Shown: positions 16,100 through 63,438 of the stretch, in pieces
How the letters are laid out: the number at the start of each line of letters is the position of its first letter
How positions within the stretch are numbered: position 1 is the stretch's first letter
Assembly (NCBI RefSeq): GCF_018977255.1
Contig: NW_024704743.1
Coordinates: 8,682,001 to 8,746,000 of the forward strand
Direction: 5' to 3'
Source: Callorhinchus milii
Taxonomy: Eukaryota
Length of the DNA stretch: 64,000 nt
The notes under the pieces: model-generated
Seen by the model: only the letters and a program-made list of their open reading frames with translations
What the model was told of the DNA's origin: nothing
Databases searched by the model: none
Translations under genes and position numbers: made by a program

Positions 16100-16600
16100 C
16101 AAAAACACCGCCCGTCGCCAAACACTTACCTTTAAAACGTGCTGAATATTTACAGTGGTTCGGCTCCTGCTTTCATTTATATCCTCTTTTCTCCCTCTCT
16201 GAGATGTGCGGTTGGTGTTTTTCCCTGAGAGCGCCCCCGGGCCCGCGGCGCTTTTCCTCGCCCTTTTCTTCTCTCCCGCTCTCTCTCTCACTCACTCACT
16301 CGGTACCGTTAAAGTCTTCCTTTCTTCTTTGTTTCTCTCTCGTCGACTTTTTTTAAAAATCTCTCTCTCTATTTCCCTCACTCAACTCTTTTTGTTTCTT
16401 TCTCTCTCTCTCTCTCGCTCTCCCCCCCGAGCTGGTGCGGCGCGGCGCGGCTCCGCTCCGTCCTGCGGTGGCGGTTGGCGGCGGCTCCTGGCTGCCCCCC
16501 TCGCCTCCCTCTCGCTCGAGCGCCGCCGACACGCACCGGAAACGCATTCCAGACCAGACACGTCACTGCGTGGACACCGCGCCCGCCTCACAGCTGATGT
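16100..16600. promoter_or_regulatory. CpG island / probable promoter
   Basis: Dense CpG cluster in otherwise CpG-poor DNA; CCGGAA (ETS-like, 16536-16541), TGACGTG on - strand (16559-16565), GC box CCCGCC (16582-16587). Confidence 0.7.
16130..16550 (-). other. Probable non-coding first exon of an unidentified minus-strand gene (5' end approximate)
   Basis: Consensus donor AAAG|GTAAGTG on - strand (GT at 16129-16128) at the edge of the CpG island; GC-rich then purine-rich leader with only a short uORF (MKAGAEPL*). Confidence 0.55.
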
Positions 16601-41919: not shown

Positions 41920-41989
41920 ATGTATTTGAAGCATATCTTGTGCGCGGTGCTGGTTTGCTGCTGGATTCATCATGGATATGCTCAATTGG
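41920..41989 (+). CDS. ITGB1-like: First coding exon, signal peptide [23 protein letters not shown]
   Basis: Polypyrimidine tract + CAG immediately followed by ATG, hydrophobic leader, G|GTAATT donor, phase 1 joins the next exon in frame. Confidence 0.85.
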
Positions 41990-44900
41990 GTAATTCCTTT
42001 CAACTAACAAAGTTCAACCTGAAGGATATCATCCCGTTCAAAATATTCCAACATGATCAATATTATTTGTTTTGCCCACGAAATATACAGTCAATTCACT
42101 TTACAGTATATTCTGTGAAGCACTTTCAGATGTGATAAGGCGCTATATCAAATGCAATGATTATTCTTATTATTACTGCATATGAAATCTGCAACTCACC
42201 TGATGGCTCAAGGAATGTTGCAAATTTGGATTCCATGACCAGGGTCAGGAGCCATTTGATCTAGCTTGTCTGAGTTCGAATTCTTTTTTCAGGTTTCTGG
42301 CTGCTGTAGAGGATAGGAGTCCCAATGTGGAAACAAAAACAGAAGTCGCTGGGAACACTCAGCAGGTCAGGTAGCATCTGTGGAGAAAGGAAGTGACAAA
42401 GGGTCGTGGACCCGAAACATTGACTCACTTTCCTTTCTCCACAGATACTGCCTGACCTGCTGAGTGTTCCCAACGACTTCTGTTTTGTTTTCAGATTTCC
42501 AGCATCTGCAGTATTTTGCATTTTGTTTAATATAGTAATGTGGTTTCCTGATCCCGATTACTGTGTACAAATTGGCTGCTGTGTTTCACCTACAAAACAC
42601 GCAGTCACTCACTTTACAATAAATCCAGTGAGATAATTTGAAGTGTTCTAATTATGTGAAAGGTGCTATATCAATTGCAAGAATTATAATTATTATTTAC
42701 CATTGGGCTAGTAACTATCCGAGGGTAATAATAAATCATAGCAGGGTGGTGATTTCTGACACGATAGTATGTACCTGTAGAACAGAACAACAACAAAATT
42801 ACATTTGTAAAATGCCTTTCACCATGGCAGGACATCCCAAGGTGCTGGACAGAGTTAATAATAATAATAATAATAATCCTTGCATTTGATATAGCACTTT
42901 TCATATCTTCTAGACATCTCAAAGGGCTTCACAGAATAGACTGTAAAGTTAATTGACTGTATACTTGTGGGCGAAATGCGGCACACAGCAGTGTCCCACA
43001 AACAGTCGTGGATTGAAATGACCAATTTATTTTTTCTTGAGGATTATTATCAGACGTGTGGAGTAAGGAAACTTGCCCAAGGTTTCATCCTGCCGGGAAT
43101 CGAACCCAGGAATCTTGCTTGCAAAGCGAGTGCTCTAACCACTGAGCTACAGGACTCCACAGGACTCGAGTTACGGACCCGAGCTGGGGGGCCAGGTTGG
43201 GGAAGGTGGAGGGCAGCGGGGAAAGCACGGTCGAAGAGGAGGGTCTTGAAATGGGTCTTGAAGGTGGCAAGGGAGGGGCTGAGGCGGAGGGACTGCAGGA
43301 TGGAGTTCCGGAAGGTGGGGGCAGAGTGGCAGAAGGCCCGCCCCCCCAGTAGTGTGGCAAGCGAGGTGGGGATGTGAAGCAGGCTGGAGGGAGCTAGCAG
43401 GATGGTAGGGAGGTTTAGGCGGTCGCAGAGGTAAGGGGAAGCAAGACTATGGAGGGCTTTGAAGGATCTTGAACTGTATCCTCTGTGTGATGGGAAGCCA
43501 GTGGATTCAGGCGAGGATGGGGGTGATAGGGTCGCGGAGCCTAGTGTGGGAGAGGACATGGGCTGCAGAGTTCTGGATGAGCTGCAGCCTATGGAGGGAG
43601 GAACAGTCCATTACTATTTCCAAGCAGAGGAAGTGCATGGCAATGAGCAAAAACAGGCAGATGAGCAGACAGTTCAGATTTAATTAGTGATGAACATGTG
43701 GAATGGACTACCAGAACTGCAGCTAGAGGCAGATTGTATCCACAAAGTCAAGAAATAGATAGTTGTTTGGCGAAGATTTCATTTGAGGGAAATAAAAAAT
43801 AATAATAATAATCCTTATATTTTGTATAATACGGTTTCATGTTGGGAGGAAGTCCCAAACCACTTCACAGGATATACTGTCCATACTGTAATGGACCAAA
43901 GAAGCCCATTCAGTAATCCTAAAGTTAGAAAAGATAATAAAAACAAATAATCCTACACTACTTTATGTCTCTTGGCACACAGTCCCTGCAAGACTGTGGA
44001 GGGTTTTGAGGACGAGGATTATGATGGGTATCCGATGGAGCCGGGTGAGGCTGGGGGTGATTTGGTCATGGAGCCTGGTGTGGGCGAGGATGTGAGCTGC
44101 AGAGTTCTGGATGGTCTCCAGTTTGTTGGCCAACAAGCACGGAGTTCGTGTATTCGAGCCTAGATGTGATAAATGCGCGGACGAGGGTTTTGGCAGCCTG
44201 AGGGGAGAGGCAGGGGCGGAACCAGGCGATGTTGTAGAGGTGGAGGAAAGCAGAGAGATAGAGTTGGGTGTTATCCGCATACACGTGGAAGATGTCTGTG
44301 GATGATGTCACCAAGAGGGAGCATGTGAAGTGTAGTGACTATATTTATAGGTGAAGTGGCTATATGTAGGGGAAAACAATAAACGATTTTGATCACTTGC
44401 AATATCCCACAAACAGCCATGAAGCGAATGAGCAATATTATCTGAAGGATTGTTGACCAGAAACACTGGCAGAAAAGAACTGTCCTAGTCAAGTTGAATT
44501 GAAAAGAAAATGATTAATTTGTAAACCTTAAGAGATTCCTGATTTTATCCACTTTTAATTAATTGCATGGATTAAAACAGATCTAAATTTCTAATCCGGG
44601 AGAACCAGAAATTTTGCTAGATGTAGTTATGTTGTATAGTTAAACAGTTTTAGCACTTGTGAATGACTTGTGAATGTGAATGACTATAGTTGCTGTGGTC
44701 TCAGTTTGCCTTTTCATCTTTCAGCTACCAATGAGTGTTTAAAAGCCAATGCAACTTCATGCGGGGAATGTATACAAGCTGGTAAGAATTGTGGATGGTG
44801 CATGAAAATAGTAAGTACATTCATTTGATGTGCATGGACGATAAAGTCAATTTAAGGAGTCCTATAGCTCAGTGGTTAGAGCACTGGCCTTGCAAAGGAG

Positions 44901-47900
44901 AGACCTGGGTTTGATTCCCGGCAGGTTTCCTTACTCCACACGCCTCATAATAATCCCTCAAAAAAAGACACAATAAAATTGGTACTTCAATCCACGACTG
45001 TTTGTGGGACACTGCTGTGCGCAATTGGCTGCCAAGTTTCGCCCACAAATATACAGTCAATTCACTTTACAATCTATTCTGTGAAGTGCTTTGAGACATC
45101 TAGAAGATGTGAAAAGCGCTATATCAAATGCAAGGATTATTATTTCTTATTATAAGTTGTTGTTACTGTCTGAGCTTCTTTTAACAATAACCTTTTCAAA
45201 TCCAAGCAGGATGACATGTGAATGATCCATGTCATAAGTTTTTCAAGTACAAGTGACACAAAATGATCTTTATCATGACATTTGTAATGTTTAATCAGGA
45301 GTGTGATTATAGTATGGAGTATCTTATAAAGTAATTAATAAATTATAACTAAATAAATAGCACATCACAAGATCAGAAGGTCTGTTTGGATGAAGAAGGC
45401 CCTTCGGCATTTTGATCTCATTCTTCCATACTTTTCTATTGTCTCTATCAAGGTACTCAATGAGGGAACACTCATAGCTTCGGACCTGAGGTTTCTTACA
45501 TTTTCCTTGCATGTCAGTAGTTGGTGCTCAAACTATAATAATAATAATCCTTGCATTTGATATTGCGCCTTATCATGTCTTTGAGACGTCTCAAAGCGCT
45601 TCCCAGACTATACTGTAAAGTGAATTGACTGTATGCTTTGTCTGCAAATCGCGGCAGCCAATTGCGCACAGCAGTGTCCCACAAACAATCATGGATTGAG
45701 TGACTTTTTTTAATATATGTTTTGAAGGAATTATTACTCCCGGAAAACTAAACTTTTGTCTTTTTAAAACAACTGAAAATATAGGATATTTGGATATGTT
45801 ATAACGGCTTGGCTTGAGATGGCTATGATCTCTAACCTTCATTTTCACATATGCACCTCTGGAACCTGCTTGACTGTCCTCCCTCCCCCCTCTCTGCTCG
45901 AAGTCAGGCTCTGTCACTGTTAAATGCTCCGAAATGCTGCCCCGCGTGAAAGGCTCCGTATGAATGCAAGTTGTTGTTGTTGTTGACCATGTGGCTAGAA
46001 TGTCAGATAGCAAGAATGGAAATTTACTGCTGCAACGACCTAGAAGCACAATGTGTAATCGCTTGAAGGAGCTATTTGTTTTAACAGATAGTCTAGCTCC
46101 TTCAAGCTATTATTTCTCCCCTCATCCACCACCCTGCCACAACTTCCCTTGGGTAATGAACTGTTTAGATACTTGCTGACTTCAGTAAGTCCACAACAAT
46201 TTGATTGTTACCAGTGCCTGGAGTGCGTTCACTTTTATTCCTCTCGGGAGAATCGCAGACCTTCCAAGTGAATTTCAAAAGTGTTGAGAACTCTTGATCT
46301 CTATTATTTGAACCTATCTACAGTAGTTACTGCAAATCACCAATGGCTTTTGAATGTGCTCTTAAAATGTGGATGCGTTTAGCAAGAGTATATCGTCAAC
46401 ATCTAATGCTGAGGGTATGGAAGGATGAGACGAAATGAAGGGCCTTCTTCATTCAAGCCTCTCTTGTGATGTTGTGAAATCAATATTGCTGGATTTTGAC
46501 AGATTGTTGTTGACTACTAAACAAACGTAAGGGAATTTCTGCAAGTTTTAATCTGTGTTGGAGTGAGTGAATTTGCCTTGATTTGCTATCTTTACAGGAT
46601 TTTGTGCAGTATGGAGTACCAAACTCAGTGCGATGTGATGATCGAGAATCACTTGTGTACCGAGGATGCCCAAAGCGTTACATTGAAAGTCCCAAAGGCT
46701 CACAAAGAATATTTGTCAATAAAATTCCGTTCCGCCGTTTGAGTGGTGAGAAGATGAAACTGGAAGACATCATACAAATTAGACCACAGAAGCTTTCCCT
46801 AAAATTGCGATCAGGTAATTTCAATAACAACAACTTGCATTTATATAGCACCCTTCACATGGGGCAGTGTCTCAGAGTGCTTAACAGTGACGGAGCCTGA
46901 TCCCGAGACGGGGAAGGGGAGGAGGTGACCGTAAGTCGAAGTGGAAGGTTTTCAGTCATGATCTGAAGGTGGAGGGATTGAGTTCCAAAGCTTTTGGGTG
47001 TAATGGCTGAAAGCAAGGCTGTTGATGATGGAGTTGAGGGGATGAGGAACGAACAGGAGGCCAGAGAAGTCGAGCGGATGCAGTGGGTAGTGGAGTGGGG
47101 AGAAAGCAGGTCAGAGAGGTAGGGAGGTGCCAAGGCATGAAGGGATTTGTAGACAAGTGAGAGGATCTTGACATCCGTTCTGTGATAGGGAACTAGCCAG
47201 TGGAGCCTGGTGAGGACTGGTCTGATGGGGGTATGGAGTTTAGTGCAGGTGTGAATTTCAATAACAGTAAAGATGGGAAAATGCTGCAGGAGAATTTTTA
47301 CTTATTTTGTGTGCATTCCTCATAGACATTATTTATTCACCGTCAGTTGTCCATGTGGAGTCCCATTGCGCATTGGCTAGAATACTCGCCTTGCAAGCGA
47401 GAGGCCCTGGGTTTGATTCCCAGGCTGGGCGAAACAACAACAAAATTACATTTGTATAGCGCCTTTCATGTCGGGAGGCCGTCCCAACCTTAGGCAACTT
47501 TCCTTACTCCACATACCTGTTCACCTAACAGTAAGTAGGAACCCGCTTGTTAATCGATTGGTGGATTGCTTTCCCTTCAAACAAAAGTGTGGCAGCCCTA
47601 ATTGCTGTTGTTTTACCCCAACTGTAAATCAATTACATTACCATTTGGGTCACCCAGTGACAAGAATTGCATTAGATGACTAGATTACATAATAGTTTTC
47701 TTACCAGTAGAGCTTTAGACTTCAGGACATCTATACAAATGCAAATTACTGTACACATTTACATTTACACTGTGCCTTTCACATTGGGAGGACATCCCAA
47801 AGCTCTTAACAGTGCTGGTTGGACATCCGAGCTGGGGGTGGGAACTGAGGAGTTGGGGAGGGGAAAGATGACCGAAAGCAAGGTCAAAGAGATTGGTTTT

Positions 47901-50900
47901 GTACTGGACTTTGTCAGAGTTGATGGAGTCAGAGGGACTGGGATGGAGCTCCAGAGAGTGGAGGCAGAGAGACTGAAAGCCCGCCCGCCAATGATGGGCG
48001 GGCTTTCAGCCAATTTCTGGACATCCTGAATTGCTAGGATAATAGAGTAAATCTAGCCCCAAGTGGAATTTACTTATCCCCTATCCCCTGGTCTAGTGAT
48101 TTTGATGATGCTGTGCATGTGGGGGGGTGGTGTGGTGGGGGTTGTTGGGAAGATGAGTATCTTATACTAACTGCTAAAATTTGTCATTTTAAAAAAAAAA
48201 TTACAATATCTTTACAATGGGAAATCTAGATTGATAGCATAGTGGTTTGTTAGTGTAAGGATGAAAATGATCAAGTTTCCTGGTGGACTGAGTTGGGAGA
48301 GGCTGAAGAAACAGAAATGACAGGCAAATAGTCAAAATTTGGGGGTTGGTGGGGGGAGTAAAGAAATTCCATGTGGGGCTAGTTCTTAGCAATTCATTGT
48401 GTCCAGAATTTGGCAAATTGGGAGAATCTCTACAATTTAACATGTTGGACATAATGAAGACAGTCCTTTCACCATAAAAGTAAAGAACTAAAATCCTCTT
48501 ATTGCAACCCGCCCTTGGAAAAATGTGCCTGAAATATATCACCCTTGTAATCCTGTGCCAGTTGTCTTTTAGAAAGACCTGTATATTTCAGATATCCTGC
48601 TCCTAACACTGAAGGTACCTAAAATCTTGTACTTTTATCCTCAGGAGAACCACAAATCTTCCCACTCAATTTCAAAAGAGCTGAGGACTATCCTATTGAT
48701 CTATACTACCTCCTGGACCTTTCTGCTTCAATGAAAGATAATTTGGAAAATGTAAAGAGGTTGGGAACAGATTTGGTGAATGAAATGAGGAACATTGTTT
48801 CTGATTTTAGGATTGGTAAGAATTTCTGTTTAGTTTCTGATTTCCACTCTTTAAGTAGTTGCTCCCTCACCCCTTTCAAGATGGTCTTGTTATGGTTCAC
48901 ACTCTGGTTCCTGGCTCAAGTGATTACTCTTCAGTGAGTCTTAATAGGCTATTTGACCATCGTGGTGAGATCAATTGTAATTATTCCATCTGCAGGCAGA
49001 TAACAGTGCAGATTGGACCTGGGATATTCAGGTCTGAATGGCTCAATTGCACTCTAGCTAATGGCTTTAACAAATGGCCCACTTGGGCGGCTGCACCTTT
49101 ACATTATATCTCGACATCTAGTAACAGTAATCACATAATTTCGAAGTCCCCACCCTCCCATTACTTGTATTCAATGACCTCCCTCCTGAAACTGAATGAT
49201 TTGGGTAAGGTTCATATAAAGTTGAATTGTATGTGGTATCCAGAGAGAGTGAACTCGACAAGCATGTGGAGTGTGTTTTTTTCTTTTTCTATATCTTTTA
49301 AAAACTCTTACGTTTTCCACTCTTTAATGTTTAATGTTGGCTGCATTTTGTCAGAAGTTGTTCCAGTAAAGTAAGATGTTATCCTATATGAAAGGTGGCT
49401 TACTAAACTGTTGTTACCCTGCAGGGTTTGGCTCCTTACATAAAAACACTTGTAAAGCTGGCGAACAGTGTACAAATCCATTCAGTTTCCGAAACGTGTT
49501 GCCGTTGACCAGTGACATCGGTAGGTTTAAAGCAGTTGTGAACGAGCAGACTGTGTCTGAAAGCCGAGACCCTGCAGAAGGTGCTTTTGATGCTATAATG
49601 CAGATTGCTGTCTGTGAGGTGAGTACAAAAATCCATGGATGAACAAAGTTTACAAGATTTATTGGAAATTCTATTTAAACAACAACCCAATGAGTAAATC
49701 TGAAAGCAGGATTCAAAGCAATACAAAATCATTGAAATACAATTTATATTCATATAGCCCCTTTCACATTGGGAGGATATCTCAAAACATTTCGCACCGC
49801 TGGCTGGATGGGACAAAATAGTTTTTGCTTGCAGTAAAATTTGGAAGGTGCAATTCCACTGGTAATGGATGTCACTGCACAATGGAGATGTGGGTAGATG
49901 TATTGACACTTATACAACAACAACAACAACAAAATTACATTTGTATAGCGCCTTTCACGTTGGGAGGACGTCCCAAGGTGCTGGACAGACAGAGTTTTGG
50001 ACTCGAGCTGGGGGTTGGGATCAGGCAGGGTGGAGGGCAGGGGGGAAAGGTGGGTGATCAAAAGCACGGTCAAAGAGGAGGGTCTTGAGATGGGTCTTGA
50101 AAGAGGCAAGGGAGGGGACGAGGCAGAGGGTTTGCAGGATGGAGTCCTAGAAGGTAGGGGCAGAGTGGCAGAAGACCCGCCTGCCAATAGTGGGGCGAGT
50201 GAGGCAGGGGACGTGAAGCAGGCTGAGCGGAGGGAGTCAGCAGGATGGAAGGGGGTTAAGAGGTCACAGAGGTAGAGGGGAGCAAGACCATGGAGGGCTT
50301 TGAAGGTGAGGACCAGGATCTTGAACTGTATCCTCTGTGTGATGGGAAGCTCGTGGAGTCGGGTGAGGATGGGGGTGATAGGGTCATGGAGCCTGATGCA
50401 GGAGAGGACACGGGCTGCAGAGTTCTGGATGAATCTGCAGCCTATGGAGGGAGGAGTTGGGCAGGCTGACAAGCAAAGAGTTTGCATAGTCAAGCCTCAA
50501 TGTAATTAAAGCGTACATGAGAGTTTTGGCGGTCTGTGGAGTGAGACAATAGTGGAGCTGGTCGATTTTGCAGAGGTGGGGGAAGGCATAGCGAGTCATG
50601 GCTCAGACATGGGGTAGAAAGGATAGTTGAGGGTCAAACAAGACCCCAAGGTGCCGGACTGGCTAAGTAAGGTGGAGGGTGCAACCATGGATGGCTATAT
50701 TTCACTCCTTGTCTTAATTGTTGAGAATAATTAAATAATCAAATTAATAACAGTGAAATCCTTACTAGCAAGCTAAACATCAGAATTTTCTACATTGACT
50801 TTGGGTCAAGTGACATGAGAGGCTTATTGAATGATGCTCTGCCTTGTTTTAAGAAGGAACTGAGACTGTCCCTCATATCAAAAAGACTGTGAAACACAGG

Positions 50901-53900
50901 TTTACACAGTACACATAATATACCCTATTGATCAGAATAAAGAAAAGATTAAACCAAAAATTATAATCGTGAAAACGTTAAGGATGCAGAATGTGAAGCT
51001 AGTATTTCCACTTCTAAACAGACATGGCTGACAACCCAATTATCTCTGGTCATCTTTTCACCCCTACCTCTCTTGAATCTAACCTTCTGCTGGCCAGAGC
51101 TTTGGGACGTCCTCTTGATGTGAAATGTAAATGTAAGTTTGTTGTTGTTGTAATGGGAAGCCAATATGGTGGGATACTATGGAAAAATTATATTGAATGG
51201 AGCAAGGGAGCATCTTTCTGTCCTTCAGCTGAGAAGTTAAACCGAGATCTAGTCTGCCTGTTCAGGCGGATGTTAAAGATCCTCTGTTATGGCTTGTAAA
51301 AGAGAAGGGAGTTTTTCCCGGTGTCCTGGCCAACAATCTCCCAAATAAAATTGATCACTTCATAGCTGTTTGTGGTACATTGCTATGTGCAAATTGGCTG
51401 CTGCATTTGCCTACAAAATACATTTCACAGAAAAATTCTATGAACCTTTGGGACTTCCTTCTAACATGACAAGGCATTATAACAGGTGCAAGGATTATTA
51501 TGTTTACCATTATTATTCATCCCTACATCTCCTGTGATTTCTTGTAAATTTCTGTGATCACTTACCTCTAATACCTTACTTGTGATTTTGTGAAAAACTC
51601 TGTATTTTACAGAATGAAATTGCCTGGCGAAATGCCACACGCCTCCTCGTCTTCTCTACAGATTCAGGATTTAATTTTGCTGAAGGTGGTGATATTGGTA
51701 GCGTGTTGCCAATTGATGCTGGATGCCAGCTGAATCCTCAGGGTTTCTACACAAAGAGTGGCTATGATGTAAGTTTGCTAGTTAATCTTGGAAGCCAGAT
51801 CAGCTCAATCTTCTCAACTTATATTTTAACAAAAAGACGAGCTTCAACCTACCTTATTTGCAATACCTTGAGTTGTGTAAAAACATTTTACTGAACCTAG
51901 TCCAGATCGAGGTGATTCAATTACAATTCCCATTAACGTCTGCTTTAATCAAACGCAGCCTGTGAATTAGTACTAACTTGGTAAAGATCTTCAGAAATTG
52001 TATACACGGTGGTGATTAGTGGGGAAACTTAAATTGTATGAGTGCATTAGGCTGAGTCAGTCTAGGGAAAGCTCTGCTTTCAACTGATGGGTGACAAGCT
52101 TGAAGCTACATAAGATCCTGGTCTACAAAATACACAGTCAAAACCACTTTACAGCATATGGTGTGAAGCTCTTTGATGACTTGATAAGACGCTATATCAA
52201 ATGCAAGGATTATTATTATTAGAGATGATTTGACAAATACCCTTCATAACAACGCTTAATTGCCCAAAGTAGTGCAAAACAACTCCAATTTGAGGATTTT
52301 GTGATATCTAAGGATAGAAGCAAAAACATGTTATGCATGACCATTTGTTAATGATAATAATCCTTTGATATAGCATTTGATATAGCGCCTTATCACGTTG
52401 TTGATATGTCTCAAAGCACTTCATAGAATATATTGTAAAGTGTATTGACTGTGTATTTTACGGGATAAATGCACCCACAAATTTGTTGATTTGTGAAATG
52501 GGTGCAGTAATCTTTCTGGGTTGAAGTTAATGATACCCGGTTAGTACTGTATCCCTGAATGGCAATCACCAAGACTGCAATCCTGTTAATACAATCATCA
52601 CAAGCACTGAGGAGGGATCTTAAGTAATGATCATTTAAAGCTGTTAAAGTGCCTGAACAATTTGATTTAGCATTGAAAACTAATGACCTGAAGAGTGTTA
52701 GTCTCGATATTGTCACCTCCTTAATACTTAGTTTGCTCATCGCTTTGAAGTTAATGAGTTCATTCTTGGAAATCTAAAGCAGATAATACTGCCTAAGTGT
52801 CTAATGTACCTTTCAGCTGAGTCTCCGGGGTCTATTTTATGATCAACTAGTTTCTACAACTTTACAATGGGAACATTGTAATAAATTGATAATTCTCTGA
52901 TAACCAAATCATTGTAAAATAATACCCACTGAACAGTGTGAAATAAAACCCTCTAATTATCTGTTTCTTCTTTTCTTTCCTCATATTTCCTTCCCCAAAT
53001 CAGTGAACTGAAGCAACTCCACAGACAATAAGGCATTCAATTTCTTGTCTCAATGTACTGGTCTGTCTGTGTTCTATGTCAGGGTGGTCCAACCATTTGG
53101 CTGCCATGGGCCGGATTCCCTATTTGAGAAAGGTCCACGGGCCGCATCCAGCCTGGGCCAGCTGAGGGCCCACAGGCCACATCTGGCCAGTGATATAATC
53201 CAGCCCGAGACCATTTCCAACATTCCACCTTCTGCTCCCTGCCTGGTGAACGTTTTCCCAGGGCAGCAGTGGGAACCAGAGGTTGAGGGACACTCAGCAT
53301 GGAGAGTGGAAATAATACCGGCCATTACTCCAGTCTGTCAGGAAGGCAAGCGGGTCTCTTACCATCTTACCAACCATGTCCTTAGCAACAGACGTGCAGA
53401 TAGTGAACCGGAGAGAGAAGGATTGGGGGTGGGGGGGAGTGGAGAGAGGAAGGGGGAGGGGGAGAGAGGAAGGGGGGAAGCAGGTGGAGAGAGGAGGTGG
53501 AGAGAGGAAAGGGAGAGAGGAAGGGGAGAGAGAAAGGGGGGAGGACGGAGGGGGGAGAAGAAGGGAGGAGCGAGGAGGGCTGTGTCTCTCCCAACCGCCG
53601 GCTCCTACCATTACCCTGGGAGGATGTTCACCAGGGAGGGAATGGAAGGTGGAATGTTGGAAATGGTCTTGGGCCGGAAAAAATCACCCGCCAGGCAACT
53701 TGTTGGACCCCTCTGGTCTATGTCACAAATTTACTGATTGTCTGGCTTACCTCTTGTTAAATAACTAACTTCACTAATCCCTTTCTTGGTTACTGCAAAT
53801 TTCTCCCTGATGTAGTAGGTCCCCAATTTTGATTGCATGTTTTTTACACACCAAGTTAGTGACTACTTTTCACAAAAATGGGTTTTAGAGTTGGTCAATT

Positions 53901-56900
53901 TTTTGTACTAAATTCTTTGAACAACTTGTATTTTAGATTCACTTGAACTTCCAAAACATTTTTGTTCACAGGATCATCCATCCATTCCTCATTTGGTACA
54001 GAAGCTCACTACCAATAATATTCAGCTCATTTTTGCTGTTACAAAACAGTCCCAGGCTGTATATAAGGTAAGATGTACTTCCCAAAAAATATACATGAGG
54101 GAAGAAGCAACCTAGAATCATGGACATTAAACCACAGAAGGAGGCCATTTAGTCCATCATGATTTTAGCTTCTCCACTGGAGTTATCTACTCGAGTTGCT
54201 ACTCTAATTTCTTCCCCACACATATTTTGTAAGACAGGCATCAGATCCAAACAGAAACCCACACCATGCTTCAGAGTTTCCAAATCACTGAGTGTTCTCT
54301 GGTAGTAGGGTTTCCATTTGCCTGGTACAGAGTGTGCACTTTCTCCCCGGAGGAGCACACCCTTCTTATCTAACCCTGGAGAGTTTAGGTACAGGTTGGC
54401 AAGAGTCCAGGCTTAGAAACCCCAGAATGTACATTTGGATACTGCTGGAGTTTAACCAGATAAAACTTGCAACTTACTATTGCAAACATTGGCAAGTTTT
54501 CTGCTGCGTATCTAGCCAGGACCACTATTATTTATTAGAGATTTTGGCTTGCAGAAGTGCTGAATGGGAGGAAACTCCTACCCCAGTGTCTGGTGTGCTT
54601 CTCAAAGTCCTGCTAATAAGCTTTATTGTCTAATCTATCATCAACAGTGGTTTGGGGTTGTATGGACCTGTTTGGTTCAGGTATTGGATTATTGAGCATT
54701 AACTAGATTTTGGTCTCCCGTTGCCTGGTGTGTCATCATGGAATCAACTCAAACCCAAAAAGAAGGTGCTTAGTTCTAACTCCACTAAGTCACCAGTTGG
54801 ACATTAGACATCCGATAAGTGCAGGTTTCAGCTTTTTGGGGTCAGCAAGGTATTTGACACAATTGGAAAGCCATTACGGTGTCTAAGGGTATCCAAACCA
54901 AACTGAGAGTTCCATATATTGCATCTATACATATAAATTTCCTGAGATATTTATTGGAATGAAAAGCGCACTCTCTCGCTGGAGGGATGCATCCTGCTTA
55001 TCTAATTCCAGAGAGTGTTAGGTGCAGGTTGACAAGAGCCAAGGTCCAGAGTGTGCATTGGGGTACTGCCGGAATCTAGCTAAAACTGCATAGCTTGCCA
55101 TTGTCCAGCTCTACCGGTTAGGGCTTTCATTTGCAGGGTTAATGGGAGGTGAGTAGGACGAGTCCCTGGCCTCCTGAGCAGCACAACTCATCCTAACTCA
55201 ATCTGTGAGAACATTGGCATGGTCCTCCTTTCTTACTCGAGCATTTTTTATTTTGTAAATGTTATGTTCTATATTGAGCATTTAAAAAACATTGCTTTCC
55301 CTGTATTACTTGCTTTTCCTCAAGGGAGTGTTGATATCCACCCTCTTCTTGGTCCCGAAAATTAACTTTTAGTGAACAACCCAGAGGCATCAGGTCTAAC
55401 CTGCCTGATTTCTACAGAATGTACCTGCTCCTGCACAAAGCACTAATTGCCTGTTATCTCCTTCCTGGCTAGGGTCCACTGACTACCCAGAAAATACACA
55501 CAGTCACACCACTTTACAGCTTAACCCAAGAAGCACTTTGAGACACCTTGACGACATAATAAGGTACAATATCAAATGCAAAGATTATTATTATTACATC
55601 TAAGTGTCTTTTGGTAGGAAAGTGCTTAGGAATTGGGTCCATGTATCATTTAGGCTATTGTATGATTTATAACGAGATAACTTATGCGAGTTTTACTGTG
55701 TTATTACCTGTCTCCCAGTAAACTGTGTTCTATCCTTAAAGTACATTGAATGTCCTCTTTCGTCTACTTATACTCCTGTGTACTGTTTATCTGGTGCTAT
55801 AATTTCTAAACCATATTCCCACCCTTCTTTCCAATGTCTTCCAGGGAACAATTATTACACTGTTGGTCACCTCTCCCTGTAATTTTTCCTACTTTCATTC
55901 AGAAGAGATTCAGCTCTCTTTATGCCTCATTGATTCAAGACTTGGGACCATCACTGTTGCTATCTTTTGTGCTTGAGAGTGTCGACACATGACCTTCCCC
56001 AAATGACATTCCCAGAATGATGTACATAACCAGATAGAAAATGGAAAGATAATAATGTTGCTCTACTTCAACAGGCACTCCGTGATCTCATTCCAAAATC
56101 TGAAGTAGGGGTTCTGTCATCCAATTCAAGCAATGTAATTAAGTCAGTCCTCGATGCTTATCATGTAAGTATTGTCCATTAAAGTAAATCTCATCTGCTT
56201 CAAAATCAGTTTGGCTTCCTTTGACATTCCAGTGCTTGCAAATGTAATGTTCTATTTTTGTTATCCGATGCAGGCTTTATCTTCTGAGGTTATCCTAGAG
56301 AACAGCAAATTACCAGAAGGAGTGACGATAGATTATACAGCCCACTGTAAGAATAATACTGTCTACAAAGGAGAAGATGGCAGAAAGTGTTCAAGCATTC
56401 AGATTGGTGACGAGGTAAGTAAGAGATCTGTGCAAAGGTAATAATAATAATAATCTTTGCATTTGATAAAGCGCTTTTCATGTCTTCTCCACGTCTCAAA
56501 GCGCTTCACAGAATAGACTGTAAAGTGAATTGACTATATATTTGTGGGCAAACCGCGGCACAGTTAGGGCACAATTGCGCACAGCAGTGTCCCACAAACA
56601 GTCGTGGATTGAAAATGACCAATTTATTATTGTTTTGTTTTGGAGGGATTATTATTAGGCGTGTGGAGTAAAAAACTTGCCCAAGATTTCGCCCTGCCTG
56701 GAATTGAACCCAGGTATTTCGCTTGCAAAGCAAATGCTCTAACCACTGAGCTACAGGCTACAGTTAGGAATTTTTGTTTTGTTTAGCTGGTATCTGAGAT
56801 ATGTGAAAACCTATCACCATGCTTAAGATTATCCAAAGAATACTAAGAGTTTTACAAGTGCACGTTTGGAAATTTCCCTGCATCTGGAATGGAATGTACA

Positions 56901-59900
56901 CTCTCTCCCCCTAGAGGAGCCCACCAAGCTTACCTAATAATACCAGAAAATATCAGGCAAAGTTGGCAAGGCTTGAAGATAGTGTGTTGGGGTACTTGGA
57001 GTCTAACCAGTTAAAATCGTATAGCTCATCATTGTGAATGAGGTCTGGTAAGTTTCCCACAGCTTGTCCAGCTCGTACCGCCCTAACTGGTGTTGTCTTG
57101 CAAAGTTAACAGAAACTGAGCGGGAAGAATCCCTGCCCCTAGGGACCAGTCTGCTCTTCTGACCTTCTGATCTTCATCCATGCCGATGAGGCAGGATGGC
57201 AGATCTGTCATCAGCAGTGTACCGCAGGCCTGCCTGGCTCACAGACCAGACTACCAAGACTGCCACAGAGGGTTGACTGGATTCTGATATTTTGTTGCCA
57301 AGCATGTCACCTTGGAGCCAGCTCAGTCCCAAAGCGACCCTACTTACTTCTCCTCCCCGCCAAGGAAGATAATTACTGATTGGTTTGAGCCCTCACTAGA
57401 TAAGACTTACCAGGATTTACCAGCAAGCTTTGTGGTGAGCAGCACAGCTCTGCACAAAATGCATGAGAGCATAGAAGTATAATGCAATTGAATCCACTGC
57501 TCACACTGAAATCTTAGCCACAAATTGATCATTTCCCAACCAATGGAAATGTGATGTTCTGCTAAACAACTTGAGACCCAAGAAAATGTCTCTTTATCTG
57601 ATTTCTTCCATACGTAATGGGTCTAAGCTGGAATCAGCAATCTAAATGGAAAAGCTCTCCTTCCACCATATCTGGCTTGAAAACTTGGCAATTTCTGTTG
57701 GTTTAGAGCAGTGGTGGCCAACCTTTTTAGTCGTCCAACAAAATAAAATATCTTGATTAATATTCTATGATTCATGCCGTAAATCAAGATATACTCAATC
57801 AAGAAAAACTGAAAGAAAACACACTACCGATTGAACACGAGACTAGTGCAATTGTTTGGGAGGCCGCTTATTGACTGCCAGCTTCAGGTCTGTGGGTCAC
57901 AGGTTGGTCACCACTGGTTTAGAGAAAAGCAACATGGTTAATCCCTGGCTTTAGGATTTAAACTGCTATTTCTACGATCTCCTCCTACCCTACTGCTCTG
58001 TTTGCCCCCACTGATCAGCTAACTCTGGCTTCCTGCACATCCCCCACCCTTCCCATGCCAGCATCAGTAGCCAATTCTTTAGCCTCATCCTCTGGAACTG
58101 CCTCCCTCAACTCTTCCATCTGGCCCACTGTGTATCTGTCTTCAGGTCCTTCCTCAAAACATAGCTCTTTGATTGCACCCATGGTTAACTCTTTCCCCTT
58201 TCTCCCTTACCATTCTACATTATTCTACATTATATTTGTATATAAATACAATTTATTGTTACATTACAAAGAGGGGTTGAAACAGTTGGACTTATTTTCA
58301 TTGAAGAAAACCTACTGAGAGAGAATAGATCCTTAAAAAGCAGATACAACGAATAATGTGGATTATAGAATTGTAGAATGTTACAGTATAGAGGAGCTGC
58401 CACCAAACTGAAAACTGCCACCATCACGCCCACCCTGAAAACGTTTGACCTATAAAGTCTATATTGTTTTTTCCCTCCACATTGCCTAATACTAGGAATC
58501 AAGGGAATTCGCTCCGCGGTCACTTCCCCTCCAACATCCACCAACCCCCCACCCCCTCACTCCCACACTCCGACTGCAACCCATCCTCCCCTACTCACTT
58601 TTGTACCCGTTTCCCCACCCTCGGTCACGAAACTCATCCTATCCCTAAAACCAACCACCTGCTCCCTTGACCCCATCCCCACTCCACTCCTTATCTCCCA
58701 GCTCCACTTTCTTGCCCCACATATCACCGACATCATCAACCTGTCCCTCTCCTCTGGCTCTGTCCCCATTCCCTTAAAAACTGCCACCATCACGCCCACC
58801 CTGAAAAAACCCTCCCTTGATGCGTCGCAGCTATCAAGCTACCGGCCCATCTCCAACCTCCCCTTTCTCTCCAAGGTCCTGGAAAGAGTTGTCGCCTCCC
58901 AACTGCGCTCTTTCCTTTCCACCCATTCTCTTTTCGAACCCCTTCAGTCAGGTTTCCGTGCTGCCCATAGCACAGAAACTGCCCTGGTCAAGGTCACCAA
59001 TGATATCCTGACCATCTGTGACCAGGGCTCCCTCTGCCTCCTCGTCCTCCTCGACCTATCGGCAGCATTCGATACGGTCGACCACGCTATCCTACTCCAC
59101 CGCTTGTCCTCCCACCTCAACCTTCAAGGCACTGTCCTTGAGTGGTTTAGGTCGTACCTTTCTCACCGTCTTCACTTTGTCTCGACGAATGGCTTCTCCT
59201 CCACCCCCCGTACTGTCTCATGTGGTGTCCCTCAGGGCTCTGTCCTCGGTCCCCTCCTCTTCACCCTCTATATGCTCCCCCTTGGTGACATCATCCGCAG
59301 ACATGGAGTTAACTTCCACATGTATGCGGATGACACCCAACTCTACCTTTCCTCCTCTACTCTCAACTCCACGACCACCGATGTCCTGACAGCTGCCTGT
59401 CCGACATCGAGTCCTGGACGAGAGACAACTTTCTTCAGCTCAACGTGCGAAAAACCGAGGCCCTCCTGATTGGCTCACGTCAGCGCCTCCGCACCTCAGG
59501 CGCTGACACCATCAGCATCCAAGGCTGCACTCTCCACCTCTCAAAGCCAGTCAGGAACCTCGGCGTTTTGTTCGACCCTGAGCTGTCCTTTCTCCCTCAC
59601 ATCCGCACCACAACTGGCACCGCCTTCCATCACCTCCGGAACATCGCCAGACTACGCCACTACCTCACCCCTCACGCTGCTGAAACCCTGGTTCACGCCT
59701 TTGTCACCTCAAGGCTGGACTATGGGAACTCTCTCCTCCGGCCTTCCCGCCACCTCCCTCCACAAGCTGCAGGTCATTCAGAACTCTGCAGCTCGTGTAC
59801 TGTCCCGCACCAGGCTTCGGGACCACATCACTCCCACCCTCGCTCGCCTCCACTGGCTCCCCATCCCCCAGAGGATTGATTTCAAGATCCTCATCCTCAC

Positions 59901-62900
59901 CTACAAGGCCATTCACGGCCTCGCTCCCTCCTACCTCTCCAACCTACTATCCCCCTACCTACCTGCCCGTACCCTCCGTTCCTCTGGCTCCGGTCTGCTC
60001 CACGTCCCCCGCCCCAATCGCCCTACCATTGGTGGTCGGGCCTTCAGCCTCTCAGCCCCGAGGCTCTGGAACTCTATCCTCCAGTGCCTTCGCCTTGCTT
60101 CCTCCCTCTCCTCCTTCAAGGCCGGTCTCAAAACCTTTCTCTTTGACCGAGCCTTCAGCTCCCCTCTCGACTCTCTTCCCCCTTCTCGCTCCCTCCTATC
60201 CCTCCCCTCACCCTGACCATTTCCCCCCTCCTCGCTCCCTTCCCTGACCATTTCCCCCCTGCTCGGGTCATGACCCAACTGTGCAGCGCCTTGGGACGTC
60301 CTCCTGACGTGAAAGGCGCTTTATAAATGGAATCTTGTTGTTGATGTTGTTGTACTACTTTTCTGCTTGTTCCTAATTCCTTCAATATTCATCTATCTAA
60401 TTCACTTTAAAAAGAATTTAAGGACTTCGCTTCAAGAACAAATTGTGGCAAGGAACTCTACACTGAGTAGCCATCTTTGAGTAAAGCTTTTAATTTGGAT
60501 AGTGGGCTAGAACTGGAGAATGATAAGAATAATAACACCATTCACATTTGGAGGACGTCCCAAACTGGTTCATATGATATACCGTAAAGTGCAGTGACAG
60601 TGTGTTCTGTGGACGAATGGGAAGGAAATGAGAAATGAAAAGAAAAATACAAAGCTAATGACGCTAAGAATCAAAAGATTACTTTTTCTTCCCAGAGCAG
60701 AAGATATGTCAACAGAAATCCTACGAAAAATTGCTTTGCTAGACTCCTCCAAAATGGACTAGACATGGTTAGGAATACAATTGACAGCCGAAAAAATATG
60801 TGTAATAGGAGATGATTGAATACTATAGAATGTAAAGGCTCCTGAGCTGATAGAACTATGGAAATGTCACATTGTCAAGAACAAATAATGTAGTTTGTAA
60901 GTTGAATTATAAACTGGAACTTGCTTGGGTGGTAGTCAGAGGCATTGCTGAGTCTTTCCTCAGGAGATTAAATATGTTGTCTAGAGGCCATGACAGGCAG
61001 ATTGTCCGTTGTTCAATGCAACAAATGACCTTTTTTCTTTGCTTTCTTGTTATTTGCCCTGCAGGTTTTATAGGCTGAAGTCTATTTCATCCTTGGTTGT
61101 ATGGCTTGAATTCATAAGTACTAACCTTCCCCCATTGTAGTTTCACTGCTGTTTGAACGGACAACCACACAATTCATCAGGGTATGGTGGTCAGCGGGGG
61201 GAAAACCAAATTTTTCAAATACAACCTCTCCCCCCACCAAAAAAAGGAAATATGAAACTATGTGTGTGTGTGTGAAGGAGATAGGGGGGATGTGAAAGTA
61301 TGTGTGTGGAGGAGGTGGAGGAATGTGAAAGTGTGTGTGTGTGTGGAGGGGGGGTTATGAAGGTGTGTGGAGGTGGGGGGAAGGAGAATTATGAAAATGT
61401 GTGGGGTTGGGGGAGGGGGAAGTGAGTTATGAAGGTGGGTGGTGGAAGAGGGGGTTATGAAGGTGTGTGGGGAAGGAGGTTTATGAAGGTGTGTGGGGAA
61501 GTCGGTCTATGAAGGTGTGTGGAGGTTTGGGATGGGAAAGTGGGTTTATGAAGGTGTGTGGGGTAGGGGGATTATGAAGGTGTGTGGGGTTTGGGGACGG
61601 GAAAGGGGGGTTATAAAGGTGTTGGGGGAGGGGGGTTATGAAGGTGTGTGGGGCTATGAGAAGGGGGTTTATGAAAGTGACCGTGCCCTGGTCACGATCT
61701 GATGTAGAACCGTTTTTTGATGAATGGACGTTGGTCTAGGAAAACATTTTTGTAAATCTACAATACTATGCATTTGGTGCCTAATAGTTAGGTCTGCCCA
61801 ACTGCATTTGCTATTAGAAGGACAGACTCCAAGACATAACATCCTTAAAATCTGATTTTGATATGTCATTCGGTTTGCAATTGCAATGACAGGACCTTTC
61901 CACAATACTACTAATGATTACCACTCACAAAGCTTATCAGTTTCTGCCAAAGACTTTTGTTGGGCCATTTCCAAGGTTTAGGTATGATGGCCACTGTGAA
62001 TGTTATGACAGTCATAAAATAGTTAAGACAGCCAATGTTGTAATGTAATATTACATTGTAATTTCAGTTTTCTTGTAAATATTGTCCCTTCCCTGTGCAA
62101 TCAAATGAATGTGCAGCTCAGAGGGCTTCTCAGGTCTGTTTTTGCCTATAAAAACAGTCACTGCATTTGACAGTGAGTTAAATGTTTTGAAATGGTTCAA
62201 CATAATAATGTGCATGTTCTTTACCTCATTAATGCTGGTTGCTAAGAGGGATGTGAGATGCACTTAATTCCCCCTCCTCTTTTGCTCTTGTTTAGCATCT
62301 TGTAGTACTCATTGGGGAACTGATCTACAGTGCTGTCCATCCTTCTCAGTGTACAGGATGTTGCTTTCTAAAGTGCCACTAATTTTTTTAATGTCTTCAA
62401 CCAGCAGCTTATATAGTCTTAAAACTGCACTCAGTGAAGCTGCACCAAACTCCTCATATCCACCACCCCCGTCCTTGCTAATCTCCACTGTCTCTCAGTG
62501 GATTAATTTCAAGGTCCTCACCTACAAATTCATTCTCTCTATGGCATCTCCTTATCTCTCTGATCTTCTCCTACTCCTCCGCTTGGCTTCTCTGCTGTAT
62601 GTTCCCTGCCCTCTCTGCACCAGCATCAGTGGCCAAGCCTTCAGTTCCTACAGCCCGACCCTCTGGAATTCCTTCCCTCTACATCTCGCCTCCTCCCTTT
62701 CTGTTTGGTCTCAAATCTTTGAAGTGCCTACGTCCACCTCCCCTTCTCCCTTCTCAGTATCCACCCCCGTCTCTGAACGTGCTCCAAGTAGTTACCTTAC
62801 GTGAAGTACACTACATACATTTTTAGCTGGTTAGACTTCAGCAGTACCCCAAAACACACTATAGGGTCCCCAAGCCTTGGCTGTTGCCAACCTGCGCCTA

Positions 62901-63438
62901 ATACTTTCCAGAATTAGGTAAGTAGGATGTGTCCCTCCAGGGAGATAGTGCGCATTTCATTCCAACAATCTGTCTCTGCGATTTCCATGTGGAGGTGGGA
63001 TGCATAGTTACAATATCAGTTTAGTTAGGATACTCTTAAGCATGATGATGAGTTTCCGCATGGCAGATACCAGACTGATAACGCCCTCATAAAAAAACAG
63101 TTGTTATTGTTTACTCACCCCGGCTAATGTAAACATAAATATGGTTTTGTGATCTGACCATCAATGACACCACCTGCTTGGGAAGTACCTACAGAGGAGG
63201 ATACGCCACTTTTTTAAAACAGATCTTTTTCCCTTTAGGTGAGCTTCAACATACGTATTACAGCAAACACGTGCCTGGGTAAAGGAAAGAAGGCAACTGT
63301 TGAAATCAAACCGATAGGTTTCAGTGAGAGGGTCAAAGTTACCCTGAGGGTTATTTGTGAATGTGGGTGCCAAGAATTGGCTGTTGTTAACAGCCCAGAA
63401 TGTTACGGGAATGGAGCGCTTGAGTGTGGAGCCTGCAG
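41920..63438 (+). CDS. ITGB1-like: Integrin beta-1-like gene (divergent paralogue), 10 coding exons in window, 3' end beyond window: join(41920..41989,44725..44810,46598..46814,48645..48815,49425..49618,51613..51768,53972..54067,56075..56164,56274..56414,63239..63438)
   Basis: Manual splicing at GT-AG sites gives an uninterrupted 1421-nt frame: signal peptide, PSI ([16 protein letters not shown]), beta-I ([41 protein letters not shown]), hybrid and I-EGF1 (CECGC...[10 protein letters not shown]). Exon sizes 86/171/156/96/90/141/200 equal those recalled for human ITGB1. Confidence 0.93.
42857..43157 (-). mobile_element. Full-length SINE inserted in an L2 3' end
   Basis: Reverse complement of the family; L2 tail on the left (42785-42856) and L2 body on the right (43160-43600). 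Confidence 0.88.
44725..44810 (+). CDS. ITGB1-like: PSI-domain exon (A)[28 protein letters not shown]
   Basis: ttttcatctttcag acceptor, ATA|GTAAGT donor, 86 nt, integrin beta PSI cysteine pattern. Confidence 0.95.
44856..45143 (+). mobile_element. SINE, same family, small internal deletion
   Basis: Head, body and ATT tail recognisable. Confidence 0.88.
46598..46814 (+). CDS. ITGB1-like: PSI/hybrid exon [15 protein letters not shown]...[14 protein letters not shown](G)
   Basis: tttacag acceptor, TCAG|GTAATT donor, 217 nt; RCDD, GCP and QIxPQxLxLxLR motifs of integrin beta chains. Confidence 0.95.
48645..48815 (+). CDS. ITGB1-like: Beta-I domain exon with MIDAS DxSxS ([57 protein letters not shown])
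   Basis: cctcag acceptor, G|GTAAG donor, 171 nt, very close to recalled beta-1 sequence. Confidence 0.96.
49425..49618 (+). CDS. ITGB1-like: Beta-I domain exon ([16 protein letters not shown]...[14 protein letters not shown]), 15 codons shorter than canonical beta-1
   Basis: ccctgcag acceptor, GAG|GTGAGT donor, 194 nt, frame preserved. Confidence 0.94.
49915..50690 (-). mobile_element. L2 LINE 3' fragment (further - strand pieces at 18460-18720, 34110-34830, 40915-41215, 43160-43600, 43985-44325, 46825-47250, 47750-48000)
   Basis: IQNSAARVL...[27 protein letters not shown] on - strand; CAA-repeat tail. Confidence 0.88.
51613..51768 (+). CDS. ITGB1-like: Beta-I domain exon [52 protein letters not shown]
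   Basis: ttttacag acceptor, GAT|GTAAGT donor, 156 nt, [13 protein letters not shown] motif. Confidence 0.95.
53080..53715. mobile_element. Non-autonomous hAT element with internal inverted repeats, 636 bp
   Basis: TIRs CAGGGTGGTCCAAC / GTTGGACCCCTCTG; 8-bp TSD TTCTATGT / GTCTATGT (7 of 8 match). Confidence 0.8.
53972..54067 (+). CDS. ITGB1-like: Beta-I domain exon [32 protein letters not shown]
   Basis: ttgttcacag acceptor, AAG|GTAAGA donor, 96 nt; matches beta-1 DYPSIAHLVQKL..NNIQ.IFAVT. Not in the ORF track. Confidence 0.94.
56075..56164 (+). CDS. ITGB1-like: End of beta-I domain [30 protein letters not shown]
   Basis: caacag acceptor, CAT|GTAAGT donor, 90 nt; LIPKS.VG.LS.NSSNVI motif. 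Confidence 0.94.
56274..56414 (+). CDS. ITGB1-like: Hybrid-domain exon [28 protein letters not shown]...[12 protein letters not shown]
   Basis: tgcag acceptor after a 109-nt intron, GAG|GTAAGT donor, 141 nt. Confidence 0.95.
56439..56757 (-). mobile_element. Full-length SINE, same family
   Basis: Reverse complement of the family, about 25 bp after an exon donor. Confidence 0.88.
57709..57916. mobile_element. Non-autonomous hAT (Charlie-like) MITE, 208 bp
   Basis: TIRs CAGTGGTGGCCAACCT / AGGTTGGTCACCACTG and perfect 8-bp TSD GTTTAGAG (57701-57708, 57917-57924). Confidence 0.92.
58510..60352 (+). mobile_element. L2-clade LINE, 5'-truncated, reverse transcriptase C-terminal half plus 3'UTR, frameshifted
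   Basis: [18 protein letters not shown] and YADDTQLY motifs, [23 protein letters not shown], (TTG)n tail; frames switch near 59395 and 59735. Confidence 0.93.
61260..61680. repeat. Degenerate GT-rich tandem repeat (TATGAAGGTGTGTGGGG core)
   Basis: Core recurs about ten times with G-rich spacers. Confidence 0.85.
63239..63438 (+). CDS. ITGB1-like: Hybrid/I-EGF1 exon [12 protein letters not shown]...ICECGCQ...[12 protein letters not shown](R)
   Basis: ttttccctttag acceptor, AG|GTAGGT donor, 200 nt, CECxC and GNGxxECGxC motifs. Confidence 0.95.

Follow-up and report, generated by a model that had tools for sequence, protein, structure and literature searches.

A loop-deleted integrin beta-1 paralogue of cartilaginous fishes lacks a membrane anchor and may be a secreted beta chain

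Textbooks present each integrin beta chain as one half of an obligate heterodimer in the membrane. Here we describe a gene in a 64,000-nt stretch of DNA from the chimaera Callorhinchus milii (the window, G000:C2:8682001-8746000, numbered from its first letter) that encodes an integrin beta-1 paralogue with neither a transmembrane helix nor a cytoplasmic tail, and with 15 residues deleted from an alpha-facing loop of its beta-I domain. We are highly confident that the product is anchorless and exported, and its sequence suggests that it is probably independent of an alpha chain; a decoy role is put forward tentatively. As a whole, we favour with moderate confidence the reading that the paralogue is a non-signalling beta-1 ectodomain that is secreted and needs no alpha chain to fold.

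The coding part of the gene in the window comprises 10 exons, 1421 nt and 473 codons without a stop, and each of the ten exons is flanked by AG on the acceptor side and GT on the donor side. The initial annotation, made from the letters alone, had described an open 1421-nt spliced frame with canonical splice sites and ITGB1-type exons, and the reconstruction bears this out. Exon sizes are 70, 86, 217, 171, 194, 156, 96, 90, 141 and 200 nt, and those of the canonical ITGB1 of the same genome are 70, 86, 217, 171, 239, 159, 96, 90, 141 and 194 nt. Exon 5 opens with the same GFG codons as its canonical counterpart and is 45 nt shorter (194 vs 239 nt), which shows that the 15 residues were removed by a deletion within the exon, at the genome level, rather than by a splice site that moved. 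A splice artefact was ruled out as its source: the exon start is canonical, the exon is used by 5/5 RefSeq models, and orthologues share the deletion. Six of the nine UniRef-only models of the paralogue pad exon 5 or swap in other sequence, and these were taken as projection artefacts.

Together with four exons beyond the window, the full spliced frame is 2103 nt long, and its product is identical to residues 7-706 of P0005, labelled in the database 'integrin beta-1 isoform X1 / beta-1-like' (Callorhinchus milii, XP_007907120.1). The encoded chain is complete, running from a signal-peptide-like N-terminus through PSI-hybrid-betaI-EGF1-4-beta-tail, and its mature ectodomain holds 56 Cys, equal to the canonical protein, in line with the conserved cysteines noted initially. 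The paralogue is beta-1-derived (869 bits vs 529 for beta-2) and 68% identical to the same species' own ITGB1. In the genome search the beta-I family matched at nine loci, and a search for another copy of the paralogue gave none.

The missing membrane anchor was established from both transcripts and genome. In contigs of 4/4 runs, drawn from 2 studies, the beta-tail exon is spliced over a GT-AG intron onto a last exon of three codons, so that the spliced stop falls right after the last beta-tail cysteine, leaving no transmembrane helix and no talin/kindlin tail. This contig evidence covers the 3' exons and gives presence rather than proportions, and the RNA nature of the runs, none of which is recorded as RNA among those listed, rests on the GT-AG joints. 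The 3' part of the paralogue is thus transcribed and spliced. The transmembrane helix and the cytoplasmic tail (HDRRE, two NPxY) are absent from it: a cytoplasmic-tail family search of the genome returned six membrane-proximal matches, which lie at six beta loci other than that of the paralogue, and blastn found no counterpart or remnant of the canonical transmembrane and tail exons in the 60 kb downstream. Neither search found a hidden transmembrane exon. The secreted option raised in the initial annotation fits the missing anchor, and secretion itself is what we infer from it.

We then compared the beta-I domain with canonical beta-1, numbering residues as in the human mature protein read via the canid beta-1 P0100; metal-site assignments follow the established beta-1 numbering. 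All the substitutions listed initially are present in the translated exons (GNLDSPE to ESRDPAE, HFAGDGK to NFAEGGD, DD to DN, DYPS to DHPS), as is the 15-residue loop loss. Both alpha-facing loops are altered in the chimaera: betaB-betaC lacks the 15 residues, and the DGKL basic finger reads GGDI, with Asp in place of K269. Among the metal sites, the metal-ion-dependent adhesion site (MIDAS) keeps 5/5 residues (D130, S132, S134, E229, D259); the adjacent site (ADMIDAS, D137-D138) is damaged by D138N; and the synergistic metal-binding site (SyMBS) retains D226, with E169 deleted or Lys, N224S and P228A. An AlphaFold2 model of the paralogue, of mean predicted local distance difference test score (pLDDT) 77, keeps the fold; the strands and the helices of beta-I are in order, and the top structure match of the model is beta-1 of alpha5beta1 (7nxd_B). 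In published work, betaB-betaC and DGKL are named as critical to association with alpha (PMC1538996), alphaV-beta5 is shown to need the basic finger for its assembly (PMC10948361), and the specificity loop is given a role in heterodimer pairing (PMC11463590).

To define the family, we used the beta-I region as query and listed the best 120 matches of each search. The paralogue occurs in at least 17 named species, Callorhinchus milii and 16 more, and two Logan proteins bring the set to 19 proteins. Shark-side members come from Heptranchias, Cetorhinus, Carcharodon, Pristiophorus, Heterodontus, two Scyliorhinus and Mustelus, and skate and ray members from Rhinoraja, Leucoraja, Amblyraja, Pristis, two Mobula, Hemitrygon and Hypanus. 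In alignment A3 the 15-residue deletion is present in 18/18 paralogues, 0/14 chondrichthyan canonical proteins and 0/29 other beta-1 proteins, and the Rhinoraja protein is a 19th carrier. The canonical transmembrane segment and tail are missing in 19/19 paralogue proteins, and the hydropathy peak lies below 1.5 in 17/18, compared with 3.05 in the two canonical proteins scanned. Both Logan proteins have the same deletion and C-terminus, and their contigs (2482 and 2315 nt) are so short that they could be spliced cDNA. One family member is its own representative in a 50%-identity library, separate from the canonical protein. No carpet-shark or Narcine member appeared among the best 120 of 300 matches, and the Scyliorhinus canicula orthologue is labelled LOW QUALITY PROTEIN.

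Across the family, all members have lost the 15 alpha-facing betaB-betaC residues and SyMBS residues, and ADMIDAS, MIDAS and the DGKL loop have eroded lineage by lineage. At SyMBS, positions 224 and 228 are non-canonical in 18/18 paralogues and position 226 in 17/18, while the E169 column, at the deletion edge, carries Glu in 2/18. The ADMIDAS pair reads DN, DD, DG, GE, NG or ND. D259 is Asn in 17/17 elasmobranch paralogues and Asp only in the chimaera, and E229, kept in the chimaera and nine shark-type proteins, is Ala or Ser in 8/8 batoids; MIDAS therefore forms a series that is complete in the chimaera, partial in sharks and short of 2/5 residues in rays. The initial annotation had called MIDAS intact, which is correct for the chimaera (5/5) and does not extend to the family, and its proposal that one working metal site was kept is not supported as a family trait. 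The K269D change is specific to the chimaera, Lys being present in 9/9 shark-type proteins, and in batoids the DGKL loop is rewritten. The cysteines also vary in a patterned way: six shark paralogues have 56 Cys as well, and at the last beta-tail pair (paired, we presume, as in beta-3) both cysteines are kept in the chimaera, the inner one has moved three residues with the terminal one kept in 7/9 shark-type proteins, and both are lost in 9/9 batoid-type proteins. The pair covaries, consistent with compensating cysteine changes.

The paralogue stands beside the canonical gene. In the chimaera, canonical ITGB1 lies head-to-head with it on the minus strand, the first coding exons being 43.5 kb apart; it retains every metal-site motif and has one exon for the transmembrane segment and two alternative ones for the tail. 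The genome therefore holds a canonical beta-1 as well, a point on which the duplicate status proposed in the initial annotation depended. Adjacency is observed directly in the chimaera and indicated indirectly in other species, where the source contigs of paralogue and canonical records agree in length in 11/11 species listing both and accessions are near-consecutive in 9/11. Synonymous divergence (dS) from the canonical gene is about 0.1 in exons 2 and 9 (0.095, 0.107) and 0.5-1.3 in the other exons; across the 386 nt of window 56034-56419 identity with the canonical gene is 91%, and the intron ahead of exon 9 matches it at 101/109 bases. We read the low dS and the near-identical intron as gene conversion between the inverted copies.

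Selection was assessed by pairwise comparison with the canonical neighbour over 698 codon pairs, of which a one-base offset in the canonical beta-tail exon affects only the last three. The ratio of nonsynonymous to synonymous divergence (dN/dS) was 0.197/0.757 = 0.26 overall, 0.192/0.899 = 0.21 in the unconverted beta-I exons and about 0.25 outside exons 8-9. These values mix a slow canonical and a fast paralogue lineage; if all amino-acid change is put on the paralogue and dS is split equally, its own dN/dS would be about 0.5. The codon comparison indicates that the paralogue is under relaxed purifying selection. Its branch lengths are 0.47-0.54 vs about 0.09 for the canonical gene, and mean within-group identity falls from 93% among canonicals to 67% among paralogues in beta-I, from 88 to 63 in the tail and least in the hybrid domain, from 82-83 to 69-71. 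With no stops, spliced contigs of the 3' part in 4/4 runs and a pairwise dN/dS of 0.26, the initial view of an intact beta-1 duplicate rather than a pseudogene holds.

To place the duplication, we built a quick tree of 36 proteins and later LG+G4 trees of 22-26 proteins. With the deletion and tail columns taken out, paralogues and chondrichthyan canonical genes form a clade (support 99/98; 99/97 with beta-2 outgroups). A paralogue-only clade that includes the chimaera gene was recovered in four trees with moderate support, at 92 (from the SH-like approximate likelihood-ratio test, SH-aLRT, only), 74/75, 83/79 and 84/94. A 351-column tree rich in converted exons joins the chimaera paralogue to its own canonical gene (90/89), and this union was not rejected by the approximately unbiased test (p-AU 0.059). 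Seven derived sites of the chimaera paralogue are common to elasmobranch paralogues vs three to its own canonical gene; together with the identical deletion, the shortened beta-tail and the short C-terminal end, this argues for a common origin of the family. Descent shared with cyprinid truncated forms was rejected when the paralogues were united with two deletion-bearing proteins (p-AU 5.7e-6). Duplication before the jawed-vertebrate split was rejected on all columns (p 0.009) but not once the converted exons were left out (p-AU 0.147), and gene conversion may mask an origin of that age. The chimaera-elasmobranch split dates to about 400 million years ago. The paralogue is old among cartilaginous fishes and, judging from the best trees, most likely convergent with the forms seen in teleosts, such as zebrafish beta1tr, and with Pactolus-type proteins, so that both halves of the initial 'ancient or convergent subfamily' would apply.

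Several other beta chains with deletions in the same loop came to light. In alignment A3, four cyprinid beta-1 proteins carry a different, 10-residue deletion. The cyprinid paralogues P0114 and P0159-P0164 (Culter, Chanodichthys, Megalobrama, Ctenopharyngodon) combine a 10-residue loop deletion with E169G; several have no transmembrane segment, their chain stopping directly behind the beta-tail, and both forms occur in grass carp. A loop-length survey, in which 66 of 148 other cluster representatives were parsed, added further single records that may include gene-model errors. P0292 is beta-1-derived and about 37% identical, lacks the whole loop and a transmembrane segment, and ends after EGF4; in the tree it is placed with ray-finned fishes, its branch being very long (union with the paralogues not rejected, p-AU 0.131), and the genome search found no separate P0292-like locus in Callorhinchus milii. 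P0250 and P0274 are beta-1 proteins similar to those of ray-finned fishes, lacking 12 and 17 residues, and P0261, chosen from the survey list by length, is beta-2-derived, without the whole loop (about 29 residues) and with DxSxS lost.

Taken together, these observations suggest the following course. An inverted ITGB1 duplicate would have arisen before the chimaera-elasmobranch split and become a secreted, non-signalling beta-1 ectodomain. As a first step, the loop loss would free beta-I from the alpha chain for folding and exit from the endoplasmic reticulum (ER); engineered loop-deleted beta subunits and Pactolus are reported to leave the ER without an alpha chain. As a second, the paralogue would no longer bind RGD-type ligands in integrin fashion. 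In the last and weakest step, it might act outside the cell as a soluble beta-1 mimic or decoy through its hybrid, PSI and EGF-leg surfaces, and would then compete for proteins that bind this part of beta-1.

A number of points weigh against this reading. Secretion, folding and partners are all read from sequence. Takagi and colleagues reportedly found in 2002 that loop deletion lets beta ectodomains be secreted alone; the deletion is said to have been about 30 residues, with alpha5 and alpha4 heterodimers still formed, and the loss in the paralogue is only 15 residues. The exon for EGF3-4 (exon 12) is skipped in contigs of 3/4 runs and included in 1/4, and skipping yields a frameshifted 583-residue form, matching RefSeq isoform X5, whose stop lies 135 nt upstream of the last junction and which may be a target of nonsense-mediated decay. 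DxSxS is invariant in 18/18 paralogues, which a pure leg-decoy leaves unexplained, and the Lys finger is kept in 9/9 shark-type proteins. The Pristiophorus model has a divergent hydrophobic C-terminal stretch (2.15). The identity of the hybrid domain may owe part to gene conversion, and the invariant columns of 15 paralogues, inspected by eye only, showed no patch of new conserved residues. The DGKL-equivalent loop has a pLDDT below 50, in a model of the paralogue alone with no canonical-model control.

One further reading is a secreted monomeric integrin beta with its own ligand or receptor, kept since before the chimaera-shark split and one of several independent loop deletions. The independent alpha-free cases would then be those of chondrichthyans (15), cyprinids (10), P0250 (12), P0274 (17), P0292 (whole loop) and the beta-2-derived P0261. 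We hold this reading to be possible and on balance doubtful.

Rather unlikely, in our judgement, is a dominant-negative protein that pairs with some alpha chains, of alpha5/alpha4 type, into ligand-blind, tail-less heterodimers held at the cell surface by the alpha chain, titrating alpha chains off canonical beta-1. The Takagi result cuts both ways and keeps this alternative alive, since loop-less beta-1 reportedly still pairs with alpha5 and alpha4. The conserved shark Lys finger, the entire leg and beta-tail with their 56 Cys in the chimaera and six shark proteins, and promoters that are probably close and divergent, which would allow co-expression, point the same way, and zebrafish beta1-3 was suggested to act as a dominant negative (PMC1538996). 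Set against this are the alteration of both alpha-facing loops, with Asp at K269 in the chimaera and the rewritten DGKL of batoids, and a beta-I domain that is no longer highly conserved.

The emphasis of the initial annotation was on a monomeric lectin or adhesin whose working MIDAS would bind acidic ligands in the manner of an alpha-I domain. The five MIDAS residues of the chimaera and the invariant DxSxS would suit it, and zebrafish beta1tr has prompted a like suggestion (PMC1538996); the replacement of D259 in 17/17 elasmobranch proteins and of E229 in 8/8 batoid proteins, and the SyMBS changes at N224, P228, D226 and E169, make it improbable. Least probable of all is a functionless or RNA-level relic, in slow decay masked by gene conversion or kept for divergent transcription beside ITGB1: the conversion tracts in exons 2 and 8-9, the long branch, the exon skipping to a premature stop, the one LOW QUALITY PROTEIN record and the lack of carpet-shark and Narcine members among the matches listed would fit, but long open frames in 17 named species, the low dN/dS of unconverted exons and the compensating cysteine changes speak against it.

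The positions of the features are collected in the table below.

Table. Features of the paralogue and its surroundings (window positions unless C2 is given, which refers to contig G000:C2)
Feature	Position	Strand	Remarks
Alternative 5' exons of paralogue RefSeq isoforms	e.g. 17660 and 38148		
Coding exon 1	41920-41989	+	Signal peptide
Coding exon 2	44725-44810	+	PSI domain; dS vs canonical gene 0.095, gene-conversion tract
Coding exon 3	46598-46814	+	PSI and first part of hybrid domain
Coding exon 4	48645-48815	+	Beta-I start; DxSxS intact; ADMIDAS DD to DN
Coding exon 5	49425-49618	+	45-nt internal deletion in betaB-betaC (specificity-determining) loop, disulphide knob retained; only D226 left of SyMBS; MIDAS Glu present
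Coding exon 6	51613-51768	+	MIDAS/ADMIDAS Asp kept; alpha-facing DGKL to GGDI, loop one residue shorter
Coding exon 7	53972-54067	+	DYPS to DHPS
Coding exons 8 and 9	56075-56164, 56274-56414	+	109-nt intron between; gene-conversion tract
Coding exon 10	63239-63438	+	Hybrid domain end, EGF repeats start
Intron leaving window	63439-64000 (start)	+	Four further exons beyond, on C2
Exon 11	C2 8746275-8746513	+	EGF repeats
Exon 12	C2 8746834-8747056 (L031:834-1056)	+	EGF3-4
Exon 13	C2 8747729-8747937	+	Shortened beta-tail
Last exon	C2 from 8751747	+	Three codons to last beta-tail Cys, stop, 3' untranslated region
AATAAA (one)	C2 8752294	+	In 3' region of paralogue last exon
Gene-conversion tracts	56034-56419 and 44696-44825		Intron sequence included; between two inverted genes
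Canonical ITGB1 coding exons	C2 8680441-8659449	-	Just upstream of window; gene model P0017
Canonical ITGB1 alternative last exons	C2 8662380-8662490 and 8659430-8659530	-	
Probable non-coding first exon of canonical ITGB1	16130..16560	-	GC-rich; ends in minus-strand donor 16130/16129

Both alternative tail types of canonical ITGB1 were found also in shark and ray proteins, and we take them to be the beta1D type and the beta1A type. The paralogue's RefSeq 5' exon that is farthest upstream (17660) is about 1.1 kb away from the GC-rich stretch at the probable first exon of canonical ITGB1, with a tandem repeat between, and window 16130-17700 possibly holds divergent promoters of the two genes. 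In human, a divergent non-coding transcript presumably occupies the corresponding position. A neuropilin C-terminal exon lies 40 kb beyond the paralogue end on the minus strand, and in human ITGB1 is a neighbour of NRP1. The intron before coding exon 10 contains a frameshifted reverse-transcriptase fragment of long interspersed element (LINE) type at window 58500-60200 (class assigned by eye), and the other introns of the paralogue are filled with many shorter repeats that look by eye like LINEs or short interspersed elements (SINEs). A single N stands at window 10777. An integrin-EGF-like match at G000:C4:47103740-47103931, outside the nine beta loci, is possibly ITGBL1.

Earlier exceptions to the heterodimer rule, zebrafish beta1tr and, reportedly, Pactolus, looked young and lineage-restricted, whereas the chondrichthyan case is old and class-wide, concealed in databases as 'integrin beta-1-like'. 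Its natural variant series makes it testable which residues tie beta-chain folding to the alpha chain, and likewise whether a beta ectodomain on its own serves a physiological purpose. Expression studies in sharks and rays may, as a caution, merge two very different 'ITGB1' genes. A literature search that left most subscription journals outside its reach returned no title or abstract on the chondrichthyan gene, PMC4237329 dealing with elephant shark integrin alpha chains; as far as searched, the gene is undescribed beyond its automatic 'beta-1-like' label.

Compared with canonical ITGB1 as seen in alpha5beta1 (7NXD), the paralogue has the same exon plan, domain order, 56 ectodomain Cys and fold, and differs in lacking the transmembrane helix and NPxY tail, in the 15-residue deletion, in its damaged SyMBS and ADMIDAS and in the lost Lys finger. 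ITGBL1 is a secreted protein made of integrin beta EGF-like repeats only; unlike it, the paralogue keeps PSI, hybrid, beta-I and beta-tail domains. Pactolus (mouse Itgb2l), reportedly described by Chen et al. in 1998, is said to be a duplicate beta chain that lost its specificity-determining loop and has no alpha partner. Pactolus-type chains are reported to fold and to be exported without an alpha chain. P0261, which we take to be Pactolus, is beta-2-derived where the paralogue is beta-1-derived; it has lost the whole loop and DxSxS, whereas the paralogue has lost 15 residues and keeps the disulphide knob and DxSxS and, in contrast to Pactolus, has no membrane form in its RNA contigs. Pactolus is cited in PMC7764012 and PMC9440770.

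The closest parallels are zebrafish beta1tr-1/2/3 and beta1-3, which, like the paralogue, are beta-1 duplicates adjoining a canonical beta-1 gene (Mould et al. 2006, PMC1538996). The truncated zebrafish forms likewise have neither a transmembrane nor a cytoplasmic domain and show a betaB-betaC deletion and an altered DGKL; their ADMIDAS and ligand-induced metal-binding site (LIMBS)/SyMBS are damaged, MIDAS and the cysteines are kept, and they were proposed as secreted regulators (PMC1538996). They differ in a stop four residues after EGF-4, where the paralogue has a spliced beta-tail exon; in DD to SN with a 9-residue deletion, as opposed to DN with 15 residues; and in descent from the teleost beta1-2 duplication (PMC1538996), while the paralogue is head-to-head with ITGB1 and groups with chondrichthyan beta-1. 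For origin, the zebrafish forms were represented in our trees by proxy, through the cyprinid deletion-bearing proteins rather than zebrafish sequences. Taken together, the predicted chondrichthyan protein resembles zebrafish beta1tr and, from what is reported of it, Pactolus, yet misses defining features of both.

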